Positions 1-55,001 of a stretch of DNA of 64,000 nucleotides are shown here, in pieces (within the stretch, counting starts at the first letter, position 1; every line of letters begins with the position of its first letter). The notes under the pieces were generated by a model that saw only the letters and a program-made list of their open reading frames with translations, made no database searches and was not told where the DNA came from. The translations under genes were made by a program, and so were the position numbers. Source of the stretch: Protoeuglena noctilucae (taxonomy: Eukaryota); NCBI GenBank assembly GCA_958009085.1, contig OY253683.1, positions 682,001 to 746,000 on the forward strand, given 5' to 3'.

Positions 1-413
1 CGCAAGGAGGGCATCTTCGCGGGGGTGAGTGCTGAATGGGACGAGGGTCAGGGGTGTATGTGTGATGATCATCAGTAGTAGAAGCTGTACTGAGTAACTG
101 TACTGAGTGCTTTAGATAATATCATCAGAAGCCTGTGTCCGTTCCTGGTCCTCGGTTGCGCAGGCTGGCCCGACTGTCTGCGCCTGCGTCTCAGAGCCTG
201 GTGTACATTTCTCGTATGATGAGTGCGGTAGTGCCATGCTTTACACAATGACGGACCGTGTTCTCAGGTGTCGTCGGGAGGGGCCATCTCCGCGGCCCTG
301 CGCCTGTCCGCTGAGGTCGACGACGCCGTCATCGTGGTCATCGTGTGCGACCGGGGAGACCGGTACCTCTCCAGCGGACTCTTCTCCTCTGAAGCCGCCA
401 AGCACGACCCCAG
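1..413 (+). CDS. cysM: Cysteine synthase, CysM (O-acetylserine sulfhydrylase B) type, C-terminal part; gene begins upstream of the window
   Basis: Exons 1-24 and 268-413 (GT-AG intron 25-267) translate to RKEGIFAG|VSSGGAISAALRLSAEVDDAVIVVIVCDRGDRYLSSGLF, matching the CysM C-terminal motif EGIFxGVSSGG...CDRGDRYLS. It ends either at TGA 415-417 or by splicing at GT 414. Confidence 0.88.
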
Positions 414-549
414 GTGACACTGGCGTGATGGAAGGGTCGCGTCACTCTCAGCGGTTGCGGGTGGTGGTTGTGCACGCTCCCAGGCGACAACGCATCTCAA
501 CCCTTCTAAGCCTCTCAATGATGACAGCTCGTTGGGTGTCACCGCGCAG

Positions 550-1062
550 GCCCACGGGCGTGGAGACCTTCGCGTCCTCTCTCGCGCGCATGTCCGCGTA
601 CCCGGCGCCCCACTACGTCCTCTTCACCACCGACATCGACCCTCAGACGCAGCAGCTGTGGTGCCCCGACTGCGCGCGCAGCGTCGACGCCGTCCGGGCG
701 GCTGTCTGGGCCACGGGGGGGACGCTGCTTGAGGCCAGCGTGGGGCAACGGCCCGCATGGAAGAGCCCAGACCACCCCTTCCGGTGAGGGGCACGGGGCA
801 GCTGGGCAACGGTGGCATGAGAGCTGAGCAAGCGTGGCTCATGTAGGGGCACGTCCCATCACCGGCGGTGGCTCGCAGGCACCTCCGGGGCTTTGAGATC
901 AAGGGCGTGCCGACGTTGGTGCGGTGGGGCGTGCGCGAGACGGGGGACGGGGAGATCCTGGCCCGCGTGCAGGGGCCTCTGGAGAACGCAGCAACCGAAG
1001 CGGAGGCGGCGCGGGTGGCACAGGAGTTTGTGGCACGGACCAAGGACCTGCGCCTGGACTGA
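550..1062 (+). CDS. TXNDC17: TRP14/TXNDC17 (Clot, DUF953) thioredoxin-like domain, probably the C-terminal domain of the CysM gene
   Basis: Exons 550-783 and 879-1062 give PTGVETF...YVLFTTDIDPQTQQLWCPDC...VGQRPAWKSPDHPFR|HLRGFEIKGVPTLVRW. WCPDC, VGxRxxWK, PFR and VPTL are TRP14 hallmarks. Confidence 0.9.
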
Positions 1063-5100: not shown

Positions 5101-8100
5101 GCTGATTGAGTCCCTGGAGCGCGACCTGGCCGATTCCCGACGCCGGCACCACCAGGAGGTGTTGGAGCTGAAGCTGGCTTTGGAAGCAAGGGAGGAGGAC
5201 GCGAGGGCGGCGGCGAGGGAGGCGGAGGGGCTGCGGGCGAGGGTGGAGAGGGCGGGGGAGGAGCTGAAGGAGGCGGAGGTGAGGGGTGGGGTGGGAATGA
5301 GGTTGAGGTGGAGGGTGGGCATGAGTGCGGTGGCTGGGGTGCAGATGAGAACCTGTTCAAACTGCATCGTCGCATTGATCAAACATCACATCGTCCATCT
5401 CCCGCCCGCAGCTGTCGCTGGACGCCACGCGCCGGGAGCTGTCCGAGACGCAGCAGGCCTTGCAGGAGAGCGACGCGCGGGGGGAGCTGCTGTCCGCGGA
5501 TCTGTCGGCGGCGCGGCGCGAGGCGGCAGCGGCGGGGGAGGACCTGGCGAGGGTGGAGGCGCTGGCCAGGGACCGGCACAGGGAGGCGGAGGCGGCGCGG
5601 GCCCGGCTGCACGCGCTGGAGGGGGAGGTGAGGAAGAGGAGTGGGATGGAATGTGATGGGGTGTGGGAGGTGGGAGTGCACGCACTCAAGGGGGGGGTGA
5701 GGGGTGGTGGGGTGGGAGTGGATGAGGTGTGGGGGTGCAGGCGCTGGAGGGGGAGGTGAGGGGTTGGAGAAATGGGTTGGGTGGGGTGTGATGGGGTGTA
5801 GGACTGCACTCACTCTGCCCTCTCTGTCTGCCACAGCTCGAGGCGAACACGCAGCAGTACCGCTCCATGTATCTCCCTATCATGTTTACCACCCCACCCC
5901 CACCTGACCCCCACAGCTGGAGGCCGGCACCCAGCAGTACCGCTCCGTGCTGTCGGGCCAGGAATCCCTCGCCCAGGAGCTGGCACGGGCCAAGGACGCG
6001 CTGAGGTCCGCCATCGGGGACTGCGACGCCAGGGACGCCGTCATTGCTGACCTCAACCGGCAGGTGAGGGGGTGGATGGGGGGGAAGGGGGGTGTGAATG
6101 TCAAAGCCACAGGTGTGGAGGGTAGCAGGAACTTGTTAATACAATGCTACGTTTCCCTCGCATCCCGCTCTATCATATCTCGTTGCCCCTCTATCGTGCA
6201 CAACTCTATATGCGATCGAATCCCCCCAGGTGTCTGACCTGGAGGCGCGTGCGGCGCGGCTGGGGGCGGAGGCGGACGACGCGCGGCTGGTGGCCGAGGA
6301 GGCGAGGAGGCACGCCAAGGCACAGGCGAGCGATAGGGTCGACTTTTTTTATGGATGGAAGTGATGGGGGGTTAGCGAGAAGGTGTGGGTGGCTGAGGAG
6401 GCGAGGAGGCACGCCAAGGCACAGGCGAGTGGTGATATGGGAGGTGGAGAGATGTGATGGGGTGCAGGGTGTGATGAGCGGACTGCTGAAGGGGTGGGGT
6501 GGGGTGGGGGTTACTGGAAGAGGCACACAGCGCACTGCTCTTTGTCCCTCTACCTCTTACCTTTGCTGCCGCTGACCCTTCATGACTCCCCTCCATCACC
6601 CCCCTCCTCTGCCTCTCTACAGGGGGAGGAGTCTGCGTCCCTCCGCGCTGCCCTGGCGGAGGCCCGCAGCAGCGCGGGGGAGTGGGAGCGGGAGGCACGC
6701 GACGCGGCCGCCAGACTGGCGCAGGCGAGATGCCGGGGGATGCAGATGGGAAGACATTGGGGTCGCATACATGATGAATGCTATATGTCATATTAACTAT
6801 GCATCTACATCCATCTTCCTTCTCGACCTCAGATGGAGGACGAGATGTCTGCGGTCAAATCCCACTCGCGCGACATCCACGGGGAGTGCTTCACGCTGCA
6901 GAAGATGCTCGAGGAGGCGGCGGACAGGTGAGATGGATGGGGATGGTGGGGAGAGATGGGTATCTAGAGCATGGCAGGCCTCTTGAATTTGATGAGCTTC
7001 CTTCCACACCCACCTCACCCTCATCTCTCTACCCTCACCATATACTGCCACCCTATACCCTCGTCTCCCACGCAGGGAGGAGTCCCTGGCCTCTCGCCTG
7101 GCCGCGGCCGAGGCCGACTTTGCCTCGGCGCGGGTGCGGGCGCAGGAGGCGGATCTCACGGCGGAGGCGGCGCGGCTCGAGGCGGCAGACGCCAGGGCGG
7201 CGGCGGACGAGGCGCGGGCGGCGGCGGAGGCGGCGGGGGCAGCGAGGGAGGCCGCGGAGAGGCGGGCGGGGGAGGGGCAGGAGGAGGTGGAGCGGCTGGG
7301 GAAGGAGGTGAGGGGAGGAGGGTGGGTGGGATGGGATGGGATGTGCGGGTTAGTGGGGAGGGTGGGGTGGGATGGGGCAGGTAGGGATATGTTGATGGAG
7401 GTGAGAGGGCAGGGATGTGGGAAAGGCTGGACTGTGAAGGTTGAAGAGACGAGGATGTTAGGGGAAAGGTGGAAGATACGCCACTTACCATGCGTACAAC
7501 TCACCCACCCCGCATCCCTGCCTTTCTCTCAGCTGGCGGACGTGGCCTTCCAGGCCCAGGAGTCCCGGGGTGCCTTGGAGGAGGCACGCGCCCACATCGC
7601 ACAGCTGGAGGAGCAGCTGCAGCAAGTGGCGGTGCTGCAGGTGAGGGAGAGCCAATTCTGCTGCATTCTCACTTCGTCTGCCTTTAGATAGATTAGATAG
7701 CAGCCAACGTCATTGCTATTCTGTCAGCCCAGGCATGGCAGCCAGCGAGACCACATGCACTCACCCGTGCCCCTCTCTCCAGGTCAAGCTCACGGCCGCC
7801 GAGGACCGCCTGCGCGAGACGGAGGCAGACCTGGAGCGCGAGCGGCAGTCGCTGCGGGCCACGCAGGACAGCCTCCGCGCGGCGCAGCGGGGCAGGGAGG
7901 ACGCCGAGCGTGTCGCGGTCAAGGCCACCGCCGACGCCGAGGGCCAGCGCAAGCGCGCGGACCTGCTTGCAAAGGACGCGGAGGGCAAGGGCCGCGCCGC
8001 CAAGGAGGCCGCGGGGCAGGTGGCCAAGCTGGAGGGGCTGCTGCGGGCGAGGGGGGAGGAGCTTGAGCGGGCGCTCAAGGAGATTCGGTGAGTGCAACAT

Positions 8101-9937
8101 TCGAATCACATGTGATATTGATTGCATGAGGAGATAGTGAAGGGCTGTCGCTGCCACCGGATGGAGTACATGATTGGAAGGCGCGGGTGTTGCGCATGAC
8201 ATGACGGGCGATGGCGTTGACCCACCAGCGGCTGACCCCATCCCCCGCCACCCTCGCAGTTCCCGGCGCGCTCGCGGCGACGAGGAGCTGTCCGAGGAGC
8301 AGGTGGCCCTGATGCACCGCCTCCGCATGGAGACGCGGTCCAAGGAGGCGGAGCTGGGGCGGCTGCGGAGTGCCCTGGAGGCCGTGCGGGCCGAGGCGGC
8401 GGAGCAGGGTGCGCTGATCGAGGAGCTGCAGGCGGAGCTGGAGGCGAACGTGGCCGAGATGGAGAGGCGCATGGAGGCGGGGACGCGGGCGGAGGCCGAG
8501 GTGGCCAGGCTCAAGTGAGTGGGGGAGGGGGGCACGATGCGATTGAGGTTTGCAGTTACTCGATTGGCGTGCGAATGCACCGTACACCTCGCAGCACACC
8601 CATTCATGCCGTCAGTTGCCAATGCATGGTCCTATCCGGTCTTGCCATCGCAGGGTCGAGCTGGAGGACAAGGCCGACGCGCTGTCCCAGGCGGCCCGGC
8701 AGCTGGTGGAGCTGCAGCAGTCGCGGCGGCTCTCCCTGGACCCCATGTCGCCCGCGCGTGGCGGGCGGGTGCCCTCCGCGGCGCCCTCGCTGCCGGAGAC
8801 CCCCGCGCAGCGCCGGCGGGCGGCGCAGGCCCAGGCGAGGCTGGCGGAGGTGCTGCTGGGTGCGACGGTGGTGTACGCGGGCGCGGCGCTGGGCCTAGAG
8901 CAGCGGGCGGCGGAGGCGGAGGCGGCGCGGATGCGCGCGGGGGAGGCCAAGGCCGCGGCGATGGATCAGCTGGCGGCGGCGCGGCGCGAGGCGGCGGCGG
9001 CCGAGGGGGCGCTTCAGTATTACGAGGACCGGTCGGGTGAGAGAGGGATGAGAAGAGTGGTGGTGGGGCAGTGTGGGTGGAGCAGAGGTGCGAGGTAGCA
9101 AATTGAGACACCTGTAGACCCACCCATGGTGCTTGTCAACGATGTCCTTGCTCCCTCGCTCGCCCCCCCAGGCATCGCGCACGTCCCCCGCGCCCTGGGC
9201 GCCCGCGTGGCGACGCTGGTGGACGACGTGGGGAGGGTGCGGGCGAGGGCCGCGGAGGCGGAGAGCACGCGTGCCGACGCCGAGCACGCCCTGCGTGGTG
9301 CGCGGGCACGCATGGAGCAGCTCTCCGGCGTCGTCGCCGAGATGCACGAGCAGGGCATCCCCATGACGGACGCCCACGCCCGGCTCATCCGGGGCTTGCT
9401 GGCCTTTGGGCCGGAGGACGAGGCTGTGGCGCCCACGCTGCCGGGGTCGCCGGGGGACGGCGACGCGCACAGCCACAGCCACGCCCGGGGCAAGGGCAAG
9501 GGACTGGGCAAGGGAGACGTCGGGACCGAGTTTAAGGTAAAGGGCGGGGCGTGATGTGGGTGTAACATGGTTTGGATGTGCTTGACTGTCACCTTGGAAG
9601 CCCAAGTTGACGAGGGGCCACATGACTACTGGCACTGTCGCGCCCTCACACTTGGCAGGACCGTGCAACTTGTCCGTTCCATTCCGCGCGTGCGCAGGGC
9701 TCGTCGGGCGGTGGGTTCCCGAACCCCGTCCGCTTCCTGGCGCGCGTGGCAGGGCCGGTCGCGGCCGTGCTCCTCGGGGCGTCGGCCCTGGCCGCCAAGG
9801 GCGTCGTCTTCGACGCCGCGAAGGGGCAGCCGGAGGCGACCCCCGACCGTGCCGCGAAGCCTCGCGTGCGCAAGTCGTCGTCGTCGCCCAGGCGTAGCAC
9901 GAGCCGCACCGGGGACGGCATCGTTGCGCAGGCTTGA
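2170..9937 (+). CDS. Large multi-exon coiled-coil protein with a C-terminal hydrophobic segment (golgin-like or cytoskeletal; family unknown)
   Basis: About 20 short E/A/R/L-rich heptad exons in consistent phase (e.g. 2867-3031, 3566-3828, 5917-6063, 7783-8087, 8654-9036). The last exon, from 9698, encodes FLARVAGPVAAVLLGASALAAKGVVF, with TGA ending at 9937. The start is uncertain. Confidence 0.75.
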
Positions 9938-28075: not shown

Positions 28076-31000
28076 TCACGGCTCTGCTGCGGGTTTCTTG
28101 CCCTTGCGTTTGTTGCGCTGGGCGTGCCCGGGCGCAGCATGCAGCTGCCTCCGGCGCACAGGGGTGTCGCCGGCCACGGGAGACGTGCGCTCGCCGGACC
28201 GCGACTCCAGCGACCTCGCAATGAGGGGCCTGCGTGCAGAGGATTGGCACTCCATCCACCACAGGGTCGCTCCACTTTCTGCAATAACATTTCGTGAAAG
28301 TCACTGCCTCACCTCGTCTCCGGGACCACCCCTGCCTCGTCCTCGGCGTCCTCGTCGACGTGCACGCGCATGCCCTTGCGAGGTCGCACCACGCCCCTCG
28401 CGGGCGACATCCCCGGAGCCCCACTCGGCCCGGCCTCACCCCCCGCCTCCGCCACCCGCACCGCACTCTCGCTGCGGCGCCCCCGCGCTGGCACAAAGCC
28501 ACCCCCGCCGCCACCGCCGCTGCCGCTGCCACCCCACTCCACCTCGCCCGCCCCCGTCCCCGTCGCACCCCCCGCTCCAGGCACTGGGCCCCCGTGATGC
28601 CCTGGGCTGTGCGGCCCGTGGCCCGCCCCACGCACCCCGCTGGGCCCCGGGCTGCCTCCGCCCCCGGACATGCCCCTCTCGAGTATCGTGTGGTCCAAAC
28701 TCTGCCTCATCAGCAGCAGTGGGTCTGGCTCCGGCGCGTTGCGGCGCCGCTGGGAGGCGTCGCGCCACTGCCGCCTGCGGTGAAACGTCGGCGGAGAGAA
28801 GAGTGTTGCTTTTGGCATTCGAGGAGAGTGCTGCTCGCAGCATGAAAGGGAAGGGGTGTTCTCAGCACCCTACCAACACCCACATCCCCACCCCCCACGC
28901 CCCCCAACATCACCACCTCAGTCAGCATAGCCAGCCATCGTCACCTGAGGTCCCCAATCTCCTTGACCAACAGCTTGGTCAAGAGCAGCCCCGCCATGGC
29001 CGCTGAGCCGTACAGCATAAGGAACACGTTGGTGAAACCCCCGGGGAGCTCTGAGATGTAGCCGGTGGCCAGGGGACCGATGGCGGCCCCCACCGACCCC
29101 ATCCCGTCGATGATGGCCGTGACGGTCGCCAGGGCCTTCTCTGTTAAGACACAGAGACGAGGGGTGGTGCTATGAGGCAGTAAGACATGCAGTGGGTAGT
29201 CTACCAAAGAGAGACGTGAGCGCTCCACCCTTGACGGCGGCTGTTATTAGGGTGGTGCATCTTTGGTACTACTCATGCCAGCCCGCCCCCTACCCTCACC
29301 CGACCCCTTGAGGCTGTCGTGGGTGCCCAGGTCTGCCGACACGGCCGTGGTGATCAAGGCATAAGGGCCGTTGACGAAGAACCCAGCGGCCATCATGAGG
29401 GCGATGTTGACGAAGAAGGACCGGTGGCCGTACGTCCTGTAGAGGTACAGAGCAGGCACGGACGCATACACGAACAGCGTCGACACGACCGACGACGCCC
29501 CCAATCGGTCCGACAGGTGCCCCGCCGCCACCCCCCCCAGGATGCCCCCGATGTCGAAGAGCACGCTCAGGTCACCCGCCTCCTTGGCGGTCAGCTTGCG
29601 CCCCCCGATCTCCGTCTCGCGGATGTAGTAGGGGAGCCAGTAGAGGAACGTGTAGGCGATGAGCTTGCAGAAGAAGAGGCAGAGGGAGAAGGCCGCGACG
29701 CCGGGAATGGCCCACGCCTGCGCCAGGCCCACGCCGTGGCTGCCCTCCACCTCGCGCTGCCGGACCTCCTGGTCGGCACCGATGCGGCGCTTCAGGTCGG
29801 CATCTGCGGTGGCGGGAGGGGAGCCGTGTGTGCGGGGGTGTCTGCCGAGAGTGGGTGGGAGTGGGGGGGTGGCACATGGGGGTAAGTAAGTGGCAGGAGG
29901 AAGGGTGCGTGACAGGCGAGGTGCTTGGCACATGGGGCTCAGTGAGTAGCAGGTGAGGTGCGTGGCAGGCCCTGCGGCCATCGCCCTGCGGTACTCGCCT
30001 GTGTGGATGTCACACAGCTGCGAGGCGACGGACATGCCGTGGTAGAGGCTCCTGTGCTGCACGTCGCTGGGGTCGGGAGTGAGGAAGAGGAACACGAGGA
30101 TCCCCACGCCAGCCACGAGGGCCCCCGGGAGCACGAAAGACCAACCCCAGCCGTACTGGAGGGCAGCCGCGGCCAGGACGGTTCCGGCGATGTTGCCGAT
30201 GCTCGTGTGGGCGTTCCACACGCCCATGATGAGCCCGCGCTTGCCCTGCGGAGGTACCAAAGTGCGCAGCTGTGTCTTGGAGGGTCAGGACCTACGCGGT
30301 AGAAACAGATGCACATTGCATTTACTCCATCATTGCAGTCATGGCACTCACCCCGTGATGAACCACGACCCCACGAAATGACAGCCACCCCAGCCACCCC
30401 ATAACCGCTCTCACCTTGCCGAACTACGACCCCATGACCGCCACCATCGCCCCCTCAACCGCTCTTACCTTGCCGAACCACGACCCCATGACCGCCACCA
30501 TCGCCCCCTCAACCGCTCTCACCTTGCCGAACCACGACCCCATGACCGCCACCACCGAGGGCCATCCTGTGGACTGGAACAGCCCCCCTGCGATCTGGAC
30601 CGCCACGAAGTACCAGAAACTGTGGATCTTCCAGAACATGCCCATGCCGAAGAGCGCCGTGAAGAGGCCGGACCCGAGCATGCCGACGGTGAGGAAGAGG
30701 CGAAGGTCCGTGTTGTCCCCCAGGTGCCCCGAGAAGAACATGCCCAGGGCGTAGGCCCCGAGGAACGCGAGGTCGCACTGGCCGAGGCGGCTGCGGCCGT
30801 AGGTGACGCTGTTGAAGGGCCACCAGCCCTGGGGGCGGGGGTCGTCCCCGTTGGCTGCTGGGGACGCGGGCGGGGGCCCCGCGGACCTCGGAGGGCCCCT
30901 GGGGGAGCCGAGAGGGACGCATTGAGATGAGAATAGCGATGGGAGACGATGGCGCCGGGCGTGGGCGCGGGCGCGGCTCACCAGGAGAGGTAATTGAGTG

Positions 31001-31680
31001 CGCGGACGTCCGGACCGGGCATGGCTGCCCCGACGGAGCGGTCCGGGAGCCCGGCGACGAGCTCGGGCGCACCGGCGATACCGCCGAGATACATGTCGCC
31101 GACGACAGACCCTGGGAAGGGCGAGGAGTCGAACGCGGACATCAAAGCGCGCCCCTCCGCCATCCGCGCTGCGTCCCTCCAGCCGGTAGAAGCCGCGGGC
31201 GTGGACCCGGCGTCCGTGTCGCCATGCAGCGTCGACTTGACGATCGACGGGGGCTTGCGGGACGCATGGTAGGCCGCATACGTCAGGAACGTCACAATAA
31301 GCACAGACGCTTTGTAAAGGCCCTGCGGGGGGGAGGCAGGGCGGGGAAATCCCGGCTGCGGCCCTATCTACGCGTAGAGAATGCGGATCCTGCGCGGCGG
31401 ATGGGACGGCTGGCGGAAGGGCCTGGAGACCGCGCGGCGGGAGCCTGCGGTACTGGAGGCGCCGGGGGCCGCGGCCCCGCCGGCCGCCGGCCGCGCGCCA
31501 TGCCGCCAGAAGCAGGTGTTGTGACCAGCAATGTCTACGAGACTCGTGGGCGTGCGCGCGGTCCGGAATGGGATGCGCGCTCGCCGCTTTGCCCCCTATC
31601 CAAATCAACCCGCCCACCTTGCGAAAGTTGCGGCCGCCCCGACACTTGATGATGAGGGCGATCCCCGGAGGAATCGCCAT
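28076..31680 (-). CDS. MFS sugar-phosphate/glycerol-3-phosphate transporter (SLC37/G3Pp family)
   Basis: TFLTYAAYHASRKPPSIVKS, QSTGWPSVVAVMGSWFGK|GKRGLIMGVWNAHTSIGNI, FFCKLIAYTFLYWLP, NGPYALITTAVSADLG and ALATVTAIIDGMGSVGAA. The last exon (to 28076) is less certain. Confidence 0.93.
30404..30555 (-). repeat. About 3 x 54-bp tandem repeat spanning an exon/intron junction of the MFS gene
   Basis: Unit starts at 30404, 30458 and 30512; a diverged fourth copy lies near 30345-30395. Confidence 0.92.
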
Positions 31681-32214
31681 CCTAGCAACGCAACAATGCC
31701 GAGAGCCCAGACGAGCTCATGCTGGCCAAAGCATCCAGCGCACTCCGCCACTCCGCCGGCCCGCTACCTGCGGGGGAGGCCGCAGCGGCAGGAAAGGTGT
31801 GACGATCCATTGCGGCATCAGCTGCTGGCGCGAGCGTGGGGGGAGCGCAGGGCGGCGCTGGTTGTCCAAACGATGGCAACGCACCGGCGCAGGGACGAGG
31901 AGGGACAGCGCTGGGCCGGAGCCGTCTTGCAGGCAGCTTGCGATTGCCGCACTGACCGCAAATTATGCGTGCAAAGCGCCCCTTACACTCTCAGCCTCGG
32001 ACAGGGGCAGCAACTCGTCGCTGCTAGTGCGCGGGCTCGGTGGCACGGACCACGCGCGTGTCGGGCAGGATAATTGTTTAACAAAGATGGCAGAGTGGAG
32101 AGACGTTCGAGCCGGCCATCTGCAAGAAACGTTGGCGTCAAGCGGCTCCCGCTTCGAGCCAGAGCCCAGCCGCTTCTAACGCAGGTGATGCGGGTGCTGT
32201 CTAGCGGATGGCTG

Positions 32215-45184: not shown

Positions 45185-48100
45185 ATGTCGACCGCCCTCG
45201 CGCAGCAGCTTCACCAGCTGCAGGTCGCGCGGGCGACATCGGACCATCGGCCGCGGGGGAAGCCGTCGCTCGTCTTCACGCCTCAGGAAGCGGCCGACCT
45301 CGACGCCGAGGTGGGGCGTGCCAGGGTCATGAAGGACGCGTTTTCATTTATCTTTCGATTGTGTAGCTGCAGTTGGTGGTGGCGAGCTGACATGTGACGG
45401 CGGCTGTGGACCCGGCCGCCGCGCGAACGGCCCGGCCGGCGTGCGGGCGGGTGCGCCCCGCACCGTCGCGAGGCTGCGACGTTATAGTTGCCGCGAGCCT
45501 GTTCAGCGACGTGCATAATGTATGTGATACCTTGGCAGTGTCGCGTGCTCCTGGGACGGCAGGAGCCGGCGCGAGGGGCGCCCCAAACCCGTTGTGCCGC
45601 AGACCATCCTTGAGCTCGCCACGCACGGCCTGCAGCAGCTCCTTCGCCTCGATGGAAGATTTCAGCGCTTTCAGAGCACCCTCTTCGCGCCAGCCACGAC
45701 CGCCCTCGACCGGTGAGCCGCCCGTGCGCCGGGAGACAGTGCTCGGCAGCCCGCCGCGTCCCCGGGGGCCCATGACCGCGCCCGCTGCCCGGCTGCAGGT
45801 CACAGCTGACGAGGGAGGAGAATGAGTCGAAGGATGTGGAAATCGGCGCATTCCTCCTGGCACTCGCGCCGCACTTCCTGCATCCTGCGGCCTTCAAGGT
45901 CCTGGAGTACCTCGTCCGCGTCTACAGGTGCCCGCCGCGCGCCCGCATTAGTGCGATAACCTCGATTAGTATCTGCTCCGCGCATCACCGGCCCCCTCTA
46001 CCATTCCCGCAGCGCGCACGAGCGCAACGTGGGCGCGTTGGTCTCCACGTTCCTCCCGTTCCACCAGACGCCGGAGTTTGTGCGCGTCGTGCAGCTATGC
46101 CACCTCGAGGGGTCCATATGGTCGTTTCTCAAGGGCATGCACTCCACCGGCGCGACGCTCCCGCGCGCGGCACTTGTCGACCGCTGCGTCCGCGACCGGG
46201 CCGTCCTGGACGCCGTCTGCGCCGCTGCGCAGGTGAGGCGGGCAGTTGCGACTCTATCCGCCGCAACCCTTGCGATGACTTGAGCTCCTGGCTCGCTGGC
46301 GGCATGATGCGACCTGCACCTGCTAATAGCCGGGGCGCCTCCTTTGCCACGGCCTCTCGGTTACAAAGGGTGCAAGAGAACTCCGCTGCGCTCCTGCATC
46401 CTGACCCGGGCCGGCCGCGCGAGCCTCTCGGGTCCTTCGGGGCAGCTGGCACATCCTGCAGCACTCATCATGCGGCGTCCACTCCACCCCGTCACACCTG
46501 CCTCCTCCCCTCTCCTTCTCAGGCCCAAGGCCGCCCCGACTGCAACTCGGCCCTGTTCCAGTCATTTTTCGCCGTTCTGCTCGCCGAGGTCATCGCGACT
46601 GCACCACGCATGGGCGAGGACGCCATCCAAGCCCTCGTGCCCGTCCTGACTCAGGGTCTCTCCCGGGAGTCTTCCGAAGATCACAGGGCCGCGTGCTTCG
46701 TCGCGTTCGGGGCGCTGTGCAGCCGAGTGCCGCTGGAGCCGTCAGTGGCGGGGGCGCTGCTGGCAGCGGCATGCGCGGGGGCCGGTGCGGCTTTGGCTCC
46801 GCAGGCGGCCATGCTGGCTTGCGTGGTGGCGCACACGCAGCGTGGCATGCGGGAGCTCCCGGACCCCGCGTTCCGGGCTCTGGTGCGCCTGCCTGGCTTT
46901 GCAACGGAGCTGGCGGGGCTGGCCAAGAGGGGCGCCAATGTGGCGGAGCTGGTGGGGCTGCTGACGCCCGCGTTGGTGCGGGGGGCCGTGCAGCGCCACG
47001 AATGCCAAACGCTGGTGAGAGGGCGGCGCAAGAGGGTGTGCAATGCTTAGCAGTGACTAGTATGCGAATTGGAGATCTGGGGTGTGCAGTGCATTGCACT
47101 TTGTGCCTGTGAAGTGTGCCACATTACTGACGTGTATTCACTTTCCCTTCGCTCTCCCGCTCACTCTTTCGCTCTTACCCATCCCCTCTACTGCCATCAC
47201 CGCCCTGCCACCCTTTCTCCCCCGCAGCTGCGCGACATCATCGACGCCCTGCCCCTGCCCCCCGCCCAAGCGACCGACCTGGCCTGGCAGCTCCTCTCCG
47301 CGGCCGCCGACGCCGCCCAGTCAGATGCGCGTGCCATCGACACCACAGGCGCCCTCGCCTCTCTGGTATGGGCCATGGATCGTCGGCACCCTGACGCGCT
47401 AGACCAAGCCATCACGCGCGCCCTGCGGGGGCAAGCCGGGGCCAAGGGCCGGGCCAGCACGGACGCCCCCGACGCATCCGACTCTGGCACCGACTCTGAC
47501 ACCGAGTCTGACAGCGACGTGGGGCCCGGGGCAGGGGTTGGTGGGGTGGGTCAGGCAAAAGCCGACGGCGGGGCGCTCCCAGCCGCCGCCGCGGCGCAGG
47601 TGTCATCGTTTCTGACGGCGGCTTTGTCAGGGTCACCCCGTGCTCCGTTGGCGGGCAGCCACGTGACGTTGGCGCAGGCGGCGGACGGTCCTAACGCGGA
47701 GTTGCGGAGGCGGGCGATGGTGGCTTTGGACGAGGCTGCTCGCGATGGCAAGGGTGGTAACGAGGACGGTGCCAAGGGTGGCGATAGGGGCGGTGACGGT
47801 AGGACCGACGGTGTCCACTTGCCCGCCTATGTCTCTGCCTTGGTTCTTCGTCGCATTCGGGACGACGACCCCGCGGTGGTGATCGCGGCGCTATCCACAA
47901 ACGCCTGCGCGTCGCTGCCGGCGGCGTCGCTGGGGCCGGAGGTTGAGTCGGCCCTTCGCATGCGCCTGTCTGCCGCGATCACACGCAAGCCCGGCAAGGG
48001 TGCCAACGTGGACGGGTGGCGAGGGGCGTGCAAACGCATGGTCAAGGCGCTGGGGCGGGCCGTGCGTGAGGCGGTGGCGGAGAGTGGGGTTGGGGCGGCG

Positions 48101-51100
48101 GAGCGCGACTGGGTGCAGAGCGTGGTGGGGTGCTTGATGGGTGTGATGGGGGCGGAGGGGGGCTCATCGGCGAGGAAATTGGCGGTGGCGGCGGCAGAAG
48201 CGTGCGCGGGGACGGGGCTGCCGGTGTTTGGGGGGCTGCGGGGCGTGGGGGAGAGGTGAGGGGCTGCGGTGGTCTTGTCGTCGGCTGGCCTGGCGGTGTG
48301 GGTGAGAGGGCTCTCAACTGTGTCGGGGGAGCATGGAAGCATGTTAGGTCTTCAGCATCTTTACAGCGCTTAGTACCCTTGTCTGTAATGCCATCTAATA
48401 TGTCTCGTATCTCGTCCTCCCAGGTACGAGGCCATGCGGTCCGCCAAGTCCGGGGACGGGGAGCCGGGGTCGTCCGGCAAGGCGCCCAAGCGGGAGAAAG
48501 GGGAGAAGAAGAAAGGCAAGAAGTCCAAGGAACGTGCTGTGGCTGAGGACGCGGGTGGCGAGAAGGGGCGTAAGGGGGCGGTGGGGGACAGCGACAGCGA
48601 TGGCACGTCGGTGGGGGCGGTGATCGCGGAAGGGATCGCAAGCGGCGTCGTGGCGGATCCCGAAGGAGGCGCGGCGCTGCTGAGCCGCGCAGCGGGGCGC
48701 GGGGGTGCGCGCGCGGCAGCAGTGGCGGCGGGGGCGCTGGCGGTGGCAGCGGAGCGGCTGCCGGCGGGGGCTGCCGTGCGCGCATCGTGCCTCAGCGCAG
48801 CGGCGGAGGCCGTGCGCGGCAAGTGGGGCGTCATGGAGTGGCTGGGCCGCGAGGACCGCCCGGCCCCCCACGCCGCTGGATCTGACGTTTCATTGCCTGA
48901 CCCCGGTGCTGCCGCGGCCCTCTCCTCGGCCCTCTCGCGTTGCCTGCGGGCCTGCGAGGACGGTGAATCGCTGCGATCCTCTGTATCCACTCGTCTCCTC
49001 GTCTTTACGGAGTGCGCCGCGTTTGGGGGCACGGACGCGCTGCTGCGGGACGCCAGTCGCGTTTCTGGCACCAGACCCTCCCCGCTTTCGGCCCTGGGGT
49101 TCCTCACCGCCGTGGCGGGACTGGCGCCGGGAGATGGGCTTGCACCTGGTGCGGACGGGACTGGTATTGCCAACAATGGTGATGGGTTGCCTGGGTTCGT
49201 GCGTGCACGTGCTCTGGTGCTGGCAGTCGAGGCGGTGCGGGCTTGCCCCAACTGGGCTTCGCAAGGTGGCAATAGCGACGGTGACATGACGGGCGTTAGT
49301 GGGGCGCGGCTGCTGGCTAGGGTGCTGGGTGCGCTTGCAGACGACGATCGCGGTGTGAGGGCGTCGGCGGTGGGGTTGCTCGAGGCGATGGCGACCGGGG
49401 CTGGGACTGAGAAGGACGGTCCGGGTGCGGAGGCGGCGGTGCGTGGCTTGGCAAGGATGTTGGCTGCGGAGGCGCGTGGCATGGCAGGCGATGGGGCGGC
49501 GGTGGTGGCGAGCCTGCGGCGAGCCCTGGCGATGGAAGGCGGGCAGGGGAAGAAGAGAAAGGGTTTGTCTGGGGAGGACCGGAAGGCGACGGTCGGCGTT
49601 CTGGCAGACGCGCTGAGTCAGGTGCCAGAGACGGCGTCAGACGCGGCGGGGGCGCGGGCGGTGCTTGCGGCGATGGTGGGGGACGGCGGGGCGGAGGCGG
49701 GGGCGGGTGCGGCGCGGGCGTCGGTGCTGGGGGCGTGCGCGGGGGTGGCTGCGTGCGTGGACCTGGCGGGCAGGGCTGGGAGCGACGGGCGGGTGGCAAG
49801 TGCAGCTGGGCCCCTCACGCTGTCCTGGGCAACTGCCTCTGGGTCGGCGCGGCTGGCGAGCTACTGCATAGCGATGCTTGGATCGCTGGCCGAGTACGGT
49901 GACGGTGGGACTGGGGCGGAGTGGGACGGGGAGGTGGCAGCGGCGGGGGTGCGAGCGGTGCTGGCGGGGCTGCGTGCAGGGCTGGGAGCGAAGGGCGCAG
50001 GGGTGGGTGGTGACGCAGACACTGTGACGCCGAGTGCCGATGAAGTGGTTGTGACGCCAAGTGGCGATGCGGGAGCCAAGGCAGTGGCGTCAGCGCTGGG
50101 TGACGTGCGGGCGGCGGCGGCTGCGGCCGTGACACCCCCGCTGTTCGCGGCGCTGCCCGAGGAGCAGCGGCACAAGGTGCTGTGCGCGCTGCTGCGGAGT
50201 GCGACGACGGACTGGCACGATGCGGGTGCGAGGGGCGCCCGGCACGCTTTGTCCCGCGTTCCCTTGCGTGCTTCGGACGTCATCGGTCTCATGAGGCGCG
50301 CCCTGGGAGGGTCAGGGTCAGCTGGGGTTGAATCGACTCGGGCGACCAAGCGCGGGCGGAGAGGGGCGGCGGAGGGGGCAAGTGGGTCGGGGGTGGGGTA
50401 CGAGGCAGCAGTGCGGTCACGGGCTGGGATGGAGGCGCTGATTGGGGCTCTGGAGGTGCTGCAGGGTGCGGAGAGGGTGGAGGGCGAGGCGGAGGTGGTG
50501 AGGGAGGTGTGCGAGGTGCTGACCGCAGTGCTGGGGGCGTGGGGTGCGGGGGGTGGGGACGGGGAGGGTGGCGTGGGCGTCGCGGTGGGGATGGGTCCCT
50601 ACGCAGCGCAGCTGGCATTGCAGGCGCTGCGGGGCGCGGTGGAGCGTGGGGGCGAGGCGGGTGCGAGGGTGGATGTGGCGGTGGCGGTGGCGGCGGCGAG
50701 AGGTGCTATGGACCCTGCCACTCGCAATGCGGCATTGGAGTTGCTGGGGGCACTGGCGCGCGCGAGGCCCGAGGACACCCTGGGGCATACCCTGGAGGTG
50801 AGAGAGGGTGAAGTGGGTTACTATATGAACTATATATACTATATAGCTCAGTTATCCAATTAATGTCTCTGCCTCTCCGTGCTTACTGTGACTGCCACTC
50901 CGCACCTTCTGTTCTCATCGTCTCTCCATCTGCAACATCGCCTCTGCCCTTACTCCCCCGCAGGTGCTGTCCGTAGTGGGTGCGTCCGCCCAAGCGACTG
51001 ACGACAGCCACTCGCACGCCGTGGCGGCCGCGGCACTGAGGGCCCTGGCACCCGCGTGGGTGGCGTCTGGCAGGAGCATGGGGGACCTGGTGGGGGCGAT

Positions 51101-54100
51101 CGTGGGGCAGCTGCCGAGCGTCTCTGCGCACCGCCGCTCCGCCCTGGTGGAGGCGCTGGTGGGGGCGGTGGGGGTGGAGGAGGGGCTGCCGGCCGTGGCG
51201 GGGGCGCTGATTGCCCGGGATGTGGGGGCGGGGGCAGAGGGGGACGAGGAGTGGGGGGTGGAGCTGGCGAGGGAGGCGATGGACGATGCGGACGGTGAGT
51301 GGGACGATGAGAGAGTGGGGTTGATGATGGTGATGGCGTGGTTGTGGATGTTGTGATGGTATCATGGTGTGGCAGTCGGTCTTTCTGTCGATATCCGTTG
51401 TCTTGTCTTGCAGCGACGGTGACATCATATCTGCTGTTGCGCGCCTTTCCTGCCAACAAGCACAACCATCCACGCACCTCAACGGCACCACTCCATCCCA
51501 ACCACTGCACGCGCCCCTGCACCACACCCATCACTCCCCTTGCCCACTCCACCTTCCCTCTTCCCCTTCCCCGCAGGCCCCGCGAGGATTCGGGCTCTCA
51601 CCCGCCTGCTGCAGACAACCTCAGAGTCCCACGAGGACCTCTCAGCGCCCGTGGTCCGGGTCACTGCGGCGTTCGCCGCGGATGCTCTGAGGGACATGGC
51701 CGGCCGTGGCGCGAGGGCCGCCGCGGCGTCAATCGTCGAGCGGGGCGCGGCTACCGCGGACGCTTCGTTGCAATCCGCGTATAGCGGACTGATCCGGCAG
51801 GTCCTATCGACGCTGCAGGCGGCGGGCGCGCAGGCCCACCGCTGCGCCAAGAAGCGCCAGCCCGTGCAGGCGCACCAGGCCCTGGCCGACGCCCTGCACG
51901 ACTGCCTCGAGTCGCTGCAATTATTGATGGACGCCGCGGCGTTCCTGCGGGCCGCAGCGGAGCTCGCGGCGTCGCGGGACGCCCAGATCTGCCGACGTGC
52001 GCTCCGGCTCTTCACGCGCCGCGTGGTCGCGCTCAGCGGGGCGGCGGAGGAGGAGCGTCGCGCAGCTGAAGCGGCGCTGCTGACGCGGGCGGAGCGGCGG
52101 GCCAAGGAGGAGGCCCTGTGCGAGGCGGCGCTGGGCGTGCTGGGCACGCTGCGCGAGGTCATGGCCGGCGGGGTCCGGCCGGGCCGCATGGTGGCGGGCG
52201 GCGGCGCGGATACCACAGCAGAAAGCGCGCCGGGGTCGCTGGCGGCGGTGGACTCCGGGTTCGGGGAGCGGAGCGCCAAGGACGCCGCGACCGTGCAGGC
52301 GGCACTGCTGGCCATGGACGCCATCGCAAAGAGATTCGGCGCCGAGCACGGCGCGCGGATGGGCGAGGTGGCGGCGGCAGCGGCGGCGTGCGCGCGCGAC
52401 GCGCGGCCGGGCGTGCGGGGCAGCGCCCTGGTGGCTTTGGCTGCCACCCTGCTGGCGGCACGGGGCAAGGTGGTGACCGTGGTGCCAACAGCGGCGGACG
52501 CTGCGATGGCTGCGGCGGAGGAGGCGATCGGGGCACTGAGTGGCGACGGCACGGGAGCGGATAAGGCGGCGGCAGGAACGGATAAGGGCGCCACTGTCGC
52601 TGCAACGGAAGGTTCTTACAGTCTCGCGCTCGCCAGTGCCCTGGCCGCCATGGGTGCCTTGGTGGACGCTCTCCCGCAGTTCGTCAGCCCTTACCTGGGC
52701 CGGCTGCTGGGCGTGGCGCTGCACCCGGCAGTGCTGGGGCGCAGTGCGGACGGGTGAGGGAGGGGTGCGGGGGTAGGCATGGGTGTGTGCGGTGGGGCGA
52801 GGGGGCATGTGCGCCGGTGGTGGGTCAGGGCACCCCCCTCACATGCCATCTCTTGCCCCTCTATACACCCGCACTAACCTCACATACCCCCTCCTCTCTG
52901 CACCTGCACCTGCACTTACCTCACATACCCCCTCCTGTCCACCCCTGCAGCTGCGCTGACCTCGCCTCCCGCATCCGCCATTCCGTCTGTGCCCTCGTGG
53001 CCCCTCGCCACGTGGTCCCTTCACTGGCAGGCGCATTCGACACGTGCCTCGCGAGGGGGGCGCAGGTGAGTCGTGATGATGAGCATAGAACAATACAGCC
53101 GCAGAACGCAGCATAGCGACCCACACCGCTACCTCCTCTCTCCACCCCACACTGGTACTCCCTTTCTCCTCCCGACACCCCTACCTCCTCTTCCCTCCCA
53201 ATACCCCTCCCCACACCCTTTCCCCCCCTCTCTGCCCCCCCAGCCCGCCTCCCTCGCCCTCCACATGCTGGCCGACGTTCTGGCAAACGCCGACTCTGAC
53301 ACCGTCGCCGGCCTCCTCGACCCCTCCTTCGCCCTCATCCTCCGCGGCCTGGACGTGCCAAGAGCACCGCCCCAGTCCATGATATCATCCCAATCGGGAA
53401 CATCCCAACCCCAATCCAATCGTGACCTGGGAGTGGGAATGGGATCGACATCCCAATCGGGGACAACCCCATCCCGTCCTCGTTCCCTCAAGAAGGTCCA
53501 CGGTCCCGCCGACAGCACGTTCATCGCTGACAGCACGATCGGCCTTGCCGTTTCTGGCACGGCTCTGGCGGTCGAGGCGGGGGCGGTGCGGGCGTTCGTG
53601 GAGCTGACAATGAAACTGCCGGAACGCAAGTTCAAGCCCATGTTCCTGCGGCTGACGGAGTGGGCGGGGGCACGCGTGGGGCCGGCGGAGGGCGGCGTGG
53701 GCGACGGTGGTGGCGGCAGCGAGTATGGTGCCGCTGCGGTGTCCCCCGCCCGGCAGGCAGCGATGTTCGCCGTCGCCGTCGCTCTCTCTGCCCGCCTGCG
53801 TGCCGTCTTCGTCCCCTACTACAGCTACCTGTGGGATTCGATCCTTTTCGCGCTGACGGGTGCCGACCGGGGGGTGGGTGGGGCCAAGGGCGGGGGCATG
53901 AAGAGCGCAAAGCGGAGGAAAGCCGAGCATCCTGTTGCCGGTTCCGATCACTTAACCACGGGTGCGGGTGGCAGTGCGGTGGATGGCGCGGGCGGTGGGG
54001 CGGGGGCGGACGGGTCGGGTGTCGACCATGTGTGGCGGCTCAGGTTCCGTGCATTGCGTGCGCTGCTGGGGTGTCTGCTGTCCGACTCTGTGGGCTTCGT

Positions 54101-55001
54101 GACGGCGGAGAGGGCGGGCGTGGTGGCGCCTGGGGTGGTGCTCCAGCTGGGGGAGGAGCTGCCCGAGCACTTGAGGGGGGAGCTGGCGGGTGAGGGGGTG
54201 GGGTGTGGGGGTGGGGGTGGGGGTTGTAATGGTTGATGGGGGGTGAGGGGTGGGGGTGTGGAGGTAGATGGGGTTAGGGGGGAGCTGGCGGGTGAGGGGG
54301 TGGGTGGGGTGTTAATGGTAGCTGGGAGTGGAGTGAATGCAGCATTATCAACGTCACCCACTTTATCATCCATTTACACCCACTCTACCGCTCGCTCTGT
54401 TTTATCACCCACCGTCACCCACTCCATCATCACCTCTTACCATCACCCCCACCCCCGCAGACGACGGCACCTCGGCCTTTATCCGCGAGTCCGCCCCCGA
54501 ATGCACGGCCCCCATCCCCGACGGATTCGCGGCCGCCGCCGTCGAGGCTGCTATGCAACTGGCGGTTTCGATGCCAGACGACGCGACCCGCAAGCCCCTT
54601 GTCCACAAGTGCCTCATGGCCACGAGGAGTGTTCTGAAGAGGCCGCGGGTGCTGGGGATCGAGTGCGTGGCGAGGATCGCCGACCGGTGAGGATGGGTGG
54701 GGTGGTTGGGGTGTGGGGGTGGGTGGGGGAGTGGGTGGGCGTGGGGGTGGGGGTGTGGGTGTGGGTGTGAGTGCGCTTTTATGCTTCTTACCACGATTGC
54801 ATCTACTGTATATAAATGCATATTCCGTTACATGCTCGCAGCCTGAGGGACGAGTTCCTGGTCTTCATCCCCGAGTGCGTGCCCTTCCTGTCGGAGCTTC
54901 TAGAGGACCCGGAGTTTGAGGTGGAAAGGCGGGCGCAGGAGGCGGTGAGGCAGCTGGAGGGGATCAGCGGAGAGAGCCTGGAGCCGTACCTGAAGACGTG
55001 A
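45185..55001 (+). CDS. UTP10: U3 snoRNP protein UTP10 / HEATR1 (HEAT repeat, BP28CT)
   Basis: MSTALAQQL...PSLVFTPQEAADLD, FLLALAPHFLHPAAFKVLEYLVR, FLPFHQTPEF, KLPERKFKPMFLRLTEWA and C-terminal IPECVPFLSELLEDPEFEVE...GESLEPYL. Confidence 0.95.

Follow-up and report, generated by a model that had tools for sequence, protein, structure and literature searches.

Whether the first 1,062 nucleotides of the Protoeuglena noctilucae DNA analysed here belong to two genes or to one is the question raised by this locus. The window, a stretch of 64,000 nucleotides (contig OY253683.1 of assembly GCA_958009085.1, positions 682,001 to 746,000 of the forward strand), opens with the 3′ part of a gene for a cysteine synthase resembling bacterial CysM, the unspliced frame of which (268–414) terminates with an Arg codon at 412–414 followed by TGA at 415–417. 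A thioredoxin frame of the TRP14 (TXD17) type follows, with candidate ATG codons at 518, 521, and 590, and terminates at TGA 1060–1062. A preliminary description of the sequence had placed the apparent CysM stop inside a splice donor, and this is borne out by both the sequence and RNA joints, with the donor GTGACA, preceded by CAG, starting at G414–T415 and thus overlapping TGA 415–417, and the acceptor at A548–G549 closing ...CGCAG. Because the donor of this boundary intron overlaps the stop codon, the unspliced DNA looks like two genes, the spliced mRNA like one. Excision of 414–549 (136 nt) creates an Arg codon from AG (412–413) and G550 and reads on in the TXD17 frame, so that the two frames join as had been proposed, with a scripted join of exons 1–24, 268–413, 550–783, and 879–1062 giving 588 nt, or 195 codons, with a sole, terminal stop. 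All positions given in that description, among them the apparent stop (415–417), the excised stretch (414–549), and the ATG codons (518, 521, and 590), match the sequence. We regard it as nearly certain that the locus is one nuclear gene, expressed and spliced, in which a CysM-type half is followed by a linker and a C-terminal TRP14-like domain.

All three introns of the joined model are of the GT..AG type, and all features of the gene lie on the forward strand. Positions 1–24 hold the end of an upstream CysM exon, eight codons ending ...KEGIFAG, followed by a GTGAGT donor, and the gene extends 5′ of the window, as judged by the reading frame and by RNA contigs over 1–23 that continue past the window start. 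An intron of 243 nt (25–267, AG at 266–267; RNA joint 23 to 267, cut +1, in three of four runs) separates this exon from the next, 268–413, which by its frame and by alignment with homologues encodes the C-terminal core of the CysM half (...CDRGDRYLSSGLF) and most of a 12-residue linker. The intron at the domain boundary (414–549; joint 410 to 547, cut +3) holds TGA 415–417 and the ATG codons 518 and 521. Exon 550–783, assigned by Pfam PF06110 and PDB entry 1wou, completes the linker and encodes about two thirds of the thioredoxin domain, counted from its N-terminus, with the active-site codons W-C-P-D-C at 659–673 aligned to the identical WCPDC of 1wou_A. A third intron of 95 nt (784–878; joint 782 to 878, cut +1) is seen in all four RNA runs, from two studies, and the last coding exon (879–1062), which aligns to the C-termini of all nine fused homologues described below, supplies the remainder of the domain (the GVPTL loop, with its Pro codon at 910–912, and the C-terminal helix) and the stop codon. 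The 3′ untranslated region is placed at 1063–1227, its end approximate, since the RNA contigs, which end at 1184, 1199, 1219, and 1227, only weakly indicate where the RNA stops. Around the stop codon, a 32-nt stretch (1050–1081) is also matched, with two letters differing, by RNA contigs of much higher abundance, which diverge from the window on both sides of it; this is a short shared motif.

A search of sequencing runs returned 14 rows with this stretch, labelled marine metagenome, five of which are recorded as RNA, and four RNA runs were compared over positions 1–1600. The contigs compared are assembled metatranscriptome contigs, which drop rare variants and give no isoform ratios. In runs X9, X11, and X12 (one study; samples S7, S1, and S8), one contig each, of 1301, 1732, and 748 nt respectively, spans 1–23, 267–410, 547–782, and 878–~1200 with no mismatching letters, with the GT..AG joints placing introns at 25–267, 414–549, and 784–878. 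The junction 413/550, for which transcript evidence had been suggested as a check, is therefore present in contigs of three of the four runs, and these contigs establish the existence of the spliced form, which is the one that was assembled. Run X13, from another study, has contigs at 670–987 and 1041–1219 only and confirms the third intron only. The contig of X11 continues 1007 nt upstream of the first base of the window, about enough for the missing ~270 CysM residues and a leader. A prokaryote-style terminator and promoter within 418–589 were considered and rejected, the locus having RNA-confirmed spliceosomal introns; the earlier point that ~170 nt leaves little room for both was a fair hint, and does not decide the case.

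The same architecture recurs in other organisms. The thioredoxin exon (78 residues), searched against longer proteins, gave two matches among 94 candidates, both carrying PF00291 and PF06110. A second search, for which the query was the last 133 residues of the best match, found ten proteins among 235 candidates, nine of them with both domains. The fused PALP and TXD17 homologues, 427–510 residues in length, comprise proteins of [Myrmecia] bisecta (443 residues; labelled ‘hypothetical protein’ or ‘Cysteine synthase’), Tetraselmis striata (470 residues), and Trebouxia sp. C0006 (509 residues), and six further transcriptome or metagenome proteins; the named carriers are chlorophyte green algae. 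The spliced product of the window can be aligned continuously with all nine, with identities of 47.8–60.5% over 182–192 columns, linker included. The linker motif D-P-x-P recurs in these proteins, with both prolines (P323 and P325) invariant in the seven full-length members. Fused orthologues, the absence of which from relatives had been named beforehand as speaking against a fusion, therefore do exist and are colinear across the junction. Several fused members (P0002, P0009, P0013, and P0164) have Ser/Ala/Arg-rich N-terminal extensions of 40–70 residues before the CysM core, which look like possible organelle-targeting peptides.

A profile built from the seven full-length fused proteins and run on 1.84 billion representative proteins gave 39,890 matches at E ≤ 0.001, with a custom hidden Markov model (HMM) locating a C-terminal thioredoxin domain in five of the best 150 representatives (P0014, P0015, P0032, P0109, and P0112). 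Pfam detects PF06110 in four of these five, and the cluster of P0015 contains a 487-residue MMETSP transcript. A metagenome scan gave 382 pattern matches, of which two loci, both relatives, were confirmed. In one of these (L002; 2771 nt), CysM exons are followed by thioredoxin exons, and a single exon (~947–1099), flanked by CAG| and |GTGAGC, runs from ...YLSTGVF through the linker to ...PHYVFF. The junction of L002 therefore needs no splicing, its introns lying elsewhere, and the boundary intron of the window is accordingly lineage-specific and does not mark the fusion seam. A donor AG|GTGA that brings an in-frame TGA directly after the exon is found in both genomes (413–417 of the window and 820–829 of L002), at differing positions, after the linker D-P in the window and after ...CDRGD in L002, and intron retention at either donor would cleanly truncate the protein. 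In a midpoint-rooted tree of 102 CysM domains covering at least 260 profile positions, from which two of the three P0001 isoforms (P0003–P0005), the two that had passed the length filter, were left out, eight of nine fused proteins form one clade and P0015 lies beside the E. coli-like CysM P0017. The common node of the fused clade and P0015 has a support of only 0.61, and the fusion may have arisen once or twice. The fused CysM–TXD17 family is thus real but small.

The cysteine synthase half of the fused homologues is of the CysM type, as the preliminary description had held for the PALP half of this gene. All seven full-length homologues score 490–521 bits against the NCBIfam CysM equivalog NF008735 (cut-off 413) and 443–474 bits against the CysM equivalog TIGR01138 (cut-off 394), whereas the same seven reach 281–291 bits against the CysK model TIGR01139, under its cut-off of 351. 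The best PDB matches of a full-length homologue are the Salmonella and E. coli CysM enzymes (421 bits, E = 5e-125), with homologue residues 26–317 aligned to CysM residues 3–295 of 303. An AlphaFold2 model compared by Foldseek with these two enzymes gives target template-modelling (TM) scores of 0.97–0.98 at 66% identity, and a Foldseek search with the whole model returns, among the matches listed, cysteine-synthase-fold chains only. Lys64, equivalent to the pyridoxal-phosphate (PLP) lysine Lys41 of E. coli in the SVKDR motif, aligns to the CysM lysine and is invariant in the seven homologues, as are Arg232 and Trp234 (E. coli CysM Arg210 and Trp212), with Arg233 (Arg211) present in six and replaced by Lys in P0008. 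The segment Arg210-Arg211-Trp212, together with a three-residue insertion, is described as specific to CysM and as widening the site for thiosulfate, and the most likely ligands of Arg210 are given as thiosulfate or other sulfur donors of larger size (PMC9547175). In the window itself, the CysM core shares 34–39 of its 47 residues with each of the nine fused homologues, and Pfam assigns no family to 268–414, the ~57 CysM residues within the window being too short for the full model. By this likeness to its homologues, the PALP half of the window gene can itself be inferred to be of the CysM type.

The assignment of the second half to TRP14 is direct. PF06110 matches window positions 551–784 with 43.7 bits (gathering cut-off 23.1, E = 2.6e-11) over profile positions 5–80 of 119, and the solved TRP14 structure, PDB entry 1wou, is matched with E = 2.2e-5, with an identical WCPDC and a conserved ...WK.P.H/N.FR stretch. 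The C-terminal half had been called TRP14-type, with its N-terminal part upstream of ATG 590, and both points hold, the TXD17 profile match starting upstream of that codon at profile position 5. The nearest Atlas clusters of this half are all TXD17. The GVPTL loop of the window recurs as [GSC][IV]PTL in all ten aligned relatives, in agreement with the conserved V/I-P-T loop opposite the thioredoxin active site, the proline of which would be in cis. Among 15 fused sequences the active-site motif is WCPDC in ten and WCGDC in two, with two retaining the first Cys only and one having no Cys; the domain of the last (P0032) remains recognisable though Cys-free, and falls below Pfam detection.

What the two halves might do together is suggested by the chemistry of CysM. 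The CysM half would condense O-acetylserine with thiosulfate to S-sulfocysteine, the first Cys of WCPDC would then attack the S–S bond of S-sulfocysteine with release of sulfite, and the second Cys would resolve the mixed disulfide with release of cysteine. The oxidised domain would be restored by an external reductant, either a thioredoxin reductase dependent on NADPH or ferredoxin or, in variants with the first Cys only, glutathione, and the sulfite released would re-enter the usual sulfite reductase route. By analogy with the separate proteins, we put the chance that the CysM half makes S-sulfocysteine and the WCPDC half reduces it at about even, and the favoured explanation as a whole, gene structure and mechanism together, at slightly better than even. 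In vitro, S-sulfocysteine is converted to cysteine by recombinant thioredoxins and glutaredoxins of E. coli, all those tested bar Grx4, with the sulfite being reused; the data for these general reductases come from in-vitro and overexpression experiments (PMC3528435). The mechanism of S-sulfocysteine reduction in vivo was called unknown in a 2022 review (PMC9547175); the fusion would give CysM the reductase that bacteria supply in trans. TRP14 has been reported as the rate-limiting cystine reductase (PMC11217419) and as reducing persulfides and polysulfides (PMC4737208), and therefore acts on small cysteine-based S–S compounds.

The AlphaFold2 model of P0001, the closest full-length homologue, computed from a 32-row alignment, has a predicted TM score (pTM) of 0.91 and a mean predicted local distance difference test (pLDDT) of 94.2, with values of 95–96 over the blocks containing the linker, and the CysM and thioredoxin domains are predicted to be docked rigidly and not loosely tethered. 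A bolder reading, which we hold tentatively and at somewhat less than even odds, is that the fusion would be a self-contained enzyme converting thiosulfate to cysteine and sulfite, with its TRP14-like domain the first dedicated S-sulfocysteine reductase identified and the rigidly docked domains passing the product on from the PLP site to WCPDC. On Rosetta-stone reasoning, such an enzyme would suggest that free TRP14/Clot proteins reduce S-sulfocysteine in other organisms, and regulated retention of the boundary intron could switch between a CysM-only product and a CysM–reductase product.

Against a fused gene, it could be argued that the locus comprises two distinct genes, with the CysM gene closed by TGA 415–417, TRP14 starting from ATG 518/521 or 590, and the spliced form a minor read-through. 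The unspliced DNA does read in this way, a public open reading frame (ORF) of 119 residues (428–787) carries PF06110 only, and rare unspliced RNA is compatible with assembled contigs. The sole RNA contigs over the region, in three of the four runs, are however spliced: an RNA contig over 433–540 was sought in all four, and none was found, the contigs bridging that stretch, and no contig starting at ATG 518, 521, or 590 was seen in them, so that the transcripts named beforehand as speaking against a fusion do not appear in these contigs. Furthermore, the 119-residue ORF opens within the intron and its first 41 residues match nothing, the TXD17 profile already matches sequence 5′ of ATG 590, and the fused orthologues are colinear through the linker, with the junction lying in one exon in L002. 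Two genes are accordingly very improbable. Whilst the fusion itself would then be real, its thioredoxin domain might instead regulate or protect the CysM half, through activity upkeep or a light/redox switch, and not reduce its product. Thioredoxin-type domains often regulate enzymes, the docked model fits a permanent intramolecular partner of the CysM half, and the persistence of variants without the full CxxC (P0112, L002, and P0032) would be more easily tolerated in a structural or regulatory module. In the seven-sequence alignment, however, the only invariant Cys listed outside the thioredoxin domain is C302, in the core motif CDRGDRYLS, and no obvious regulatory disulfide partner was identified. 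Additionally, TRP14-type proteins have been reported to reduce small S–S compounds of cysteine (PMC11217419, PMC4737208), and the CysM product S-sulfocysteine specifically needs such a reductase (PMC3528435, PMC9547175). We consider a regulatory role unlikely. Less likely again is a fusion that uses persulfide, polysulfide, or another large sulfur donor, with the TRP14-like half reducing a cysteine persulfide or mixed disulfide to cysteine and sulfide. This was also allowed for in the preliminary description and agrees with the activity of TRP14 on persulfides and polysulfides (PMC4737208), but the fused proteins pass equivalogs built on thiosulfate-using CysM and keep the equivalent of Arg210, and nothing seen sets their site apart from that of E. 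coli CysM.

Several observations weigh against the favoured explanation, that a CysM half makes S-sulfocysteine and a fused TRP14-like half reduces it. Of the CysM half, no more than the final ~57 residues fall within the window, with the PLP lysine and the Arg210 segment lying upstream of the window and seen in homologues only. The splice evidence consists of assembled contigs from one study, and a minor intron-retaining, CysM-only product is possible, since such contigs carry no isoform ratios. The fused family is small, with three green algae as its only named sources, and the TXD17 subtype is not exclusively a partner of CysM, as it occurs without CysM in two cases. One is P0006 of Acetabularia acetabulum (EukProt), where a thioredoxin domain with 61 of 131 residues identical to that of the window lies behind a hydrophobic, membrane-anchor-like N-terminal segment with no PALP domain; the other is the metagenome locus L001 (10,273 nt), with a TXD17-like gene at 7856–8565 and no CysM match within the ~7.9 kb upstream. 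Finally, a full CxxC is missing from three of the 15 fused sequences (ACPET in P0112, WCPDV at 1281–1295 of L002, and the Cys-free P0032), and there is therefore no dithiol reductase function in at least one lineage. Judged by their motifs, the domains of P0112 and L002 could act as monothiols with glutathione, which that of P0032 cannot.

Compared with known systems, the fused homologues have a PALP half that is close to the bacterial CysM of E. coli and Salmonella (PDB 2bhs and 2jc3; ~66% identity) and keeps the equivalents of Arg210 and Trp212, and the E. coli product S-sulfocysteine is likewise reduced by thioredoxin and glutaredoxin proteins (PMC3528435). In bacteria, however, the reductase is a separate, general-purpose protein, whereas in the fusion a conserved linker ties a TRP14-type domain covalently to the synthase, and the host of the fusion is a eukaryote with spliceosomal introns. 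Human TRP14 (TXNDC17; PDB 1wou) and the window exon share the PF06110 family and an identical WCPDC, although the known TRP14 proteins are stand-alone, of ~14 kDa (PDB chains of 122–130 residues), and here the domain is the C-terminus of a ~450-residue protein, some relatives of which have lost the second Cys or both. Plant proteins of the TRP14 type are called ‘Clot’. The eukaryotic S-sulfocysteine synthase CS26 of Arabidopsis, a plastid-associated enzyme using thiosulfate, is a CysK/OASTL-family paralogue not known to carry a reductase domain, in contrast to the fused proteins, which are CysM-type and carry a reductase-type domain. The adenosine 5′-phosphosulfate (APS) reductase of plants and green algae is also a sulfur-assimilation enzyme with a C-terminally fused thiol reductant (PMC2275785), but differs in its catalytic domain, pathway step, and thioredoxin subfamily; the fusion described here is a second case of such an enzyme. 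The passages found in that review of sulfate-assimilation fusions mention no OASTL or CysM fusion (PMC2275785).

Among 42 long representatives of the best 150 profile matches, other cysteine-synthase fusions are found, namely fusions of PALP with cysteinyl-tRNA synthetase (PALP+CysRS), with a second PALP and serine acetyltransferase (PALP+PALP+SAT), and with a redox domain (PALP+C_GCAxxG_C_C), these three kinds in P0018, P0024, P0046, P0057, P0062–P0065, P0081, P0082, P0110, P0126, and P0163, and also PALP+CBS, with PF06110 found in none of the 42. Judging by these domain combinations, cysteine synthases are evidently prone to fusing with pathway partners or redox modules, and the TXD17 fusion (five of the best 150) forms a separate small group beside them.

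The preliminary description knew of no account of this architecture, and a literature search aimed at CysM or cysteine synthase fusions with thioredoxin or TRP14 found none, most subscription journals lying outside its coverage; fused models are nonetheless already deposited as ‘hypothetical protein’ or ‘Cysteine synthase’. In the public protein collection this gene is present only as the 119-residue ORF (P0173; 428–787, forward strand, on seven contigs), which starts at an ATG inside intron 414–549 and stops in the donor of the next intron, a splice-blind prediction by which the fusion is obscured. Gene prediction that takes no account of introns splits the gene in this way, and the architecture is therefore under-counted in metagenome-derived protein sets. 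The fusion joins known kinds (CysM, TRP14, and reductant-fused sulfur enzymes) and is not a new category. A conserved CysM–TRP14 fusion does, however, name a specific candidate S-sulfocysteine reductase, contained for testing in one recombinant protein, and the presence of a bacterial-type CysM in some green algae suggests that thiosulfate is usable as a sulfur source, which is relevant to marine sulfur cycling.

The window as a whole is eukaryotic nuclear DNA, with a G+C content of ~0.60–0.71 and no tRNA genes found in it. Pfam searches of 13 long ORFs of the window gave eukaryotic housekeeping matches only, including an MFS transporter fragment on the reverse strand (30424–31716) and, on the forward strand, the long open stretches of a UTP10/HEATR1-type nucleolar gene (45776–54236) with U3snoRNP10 and BP28CT domains.

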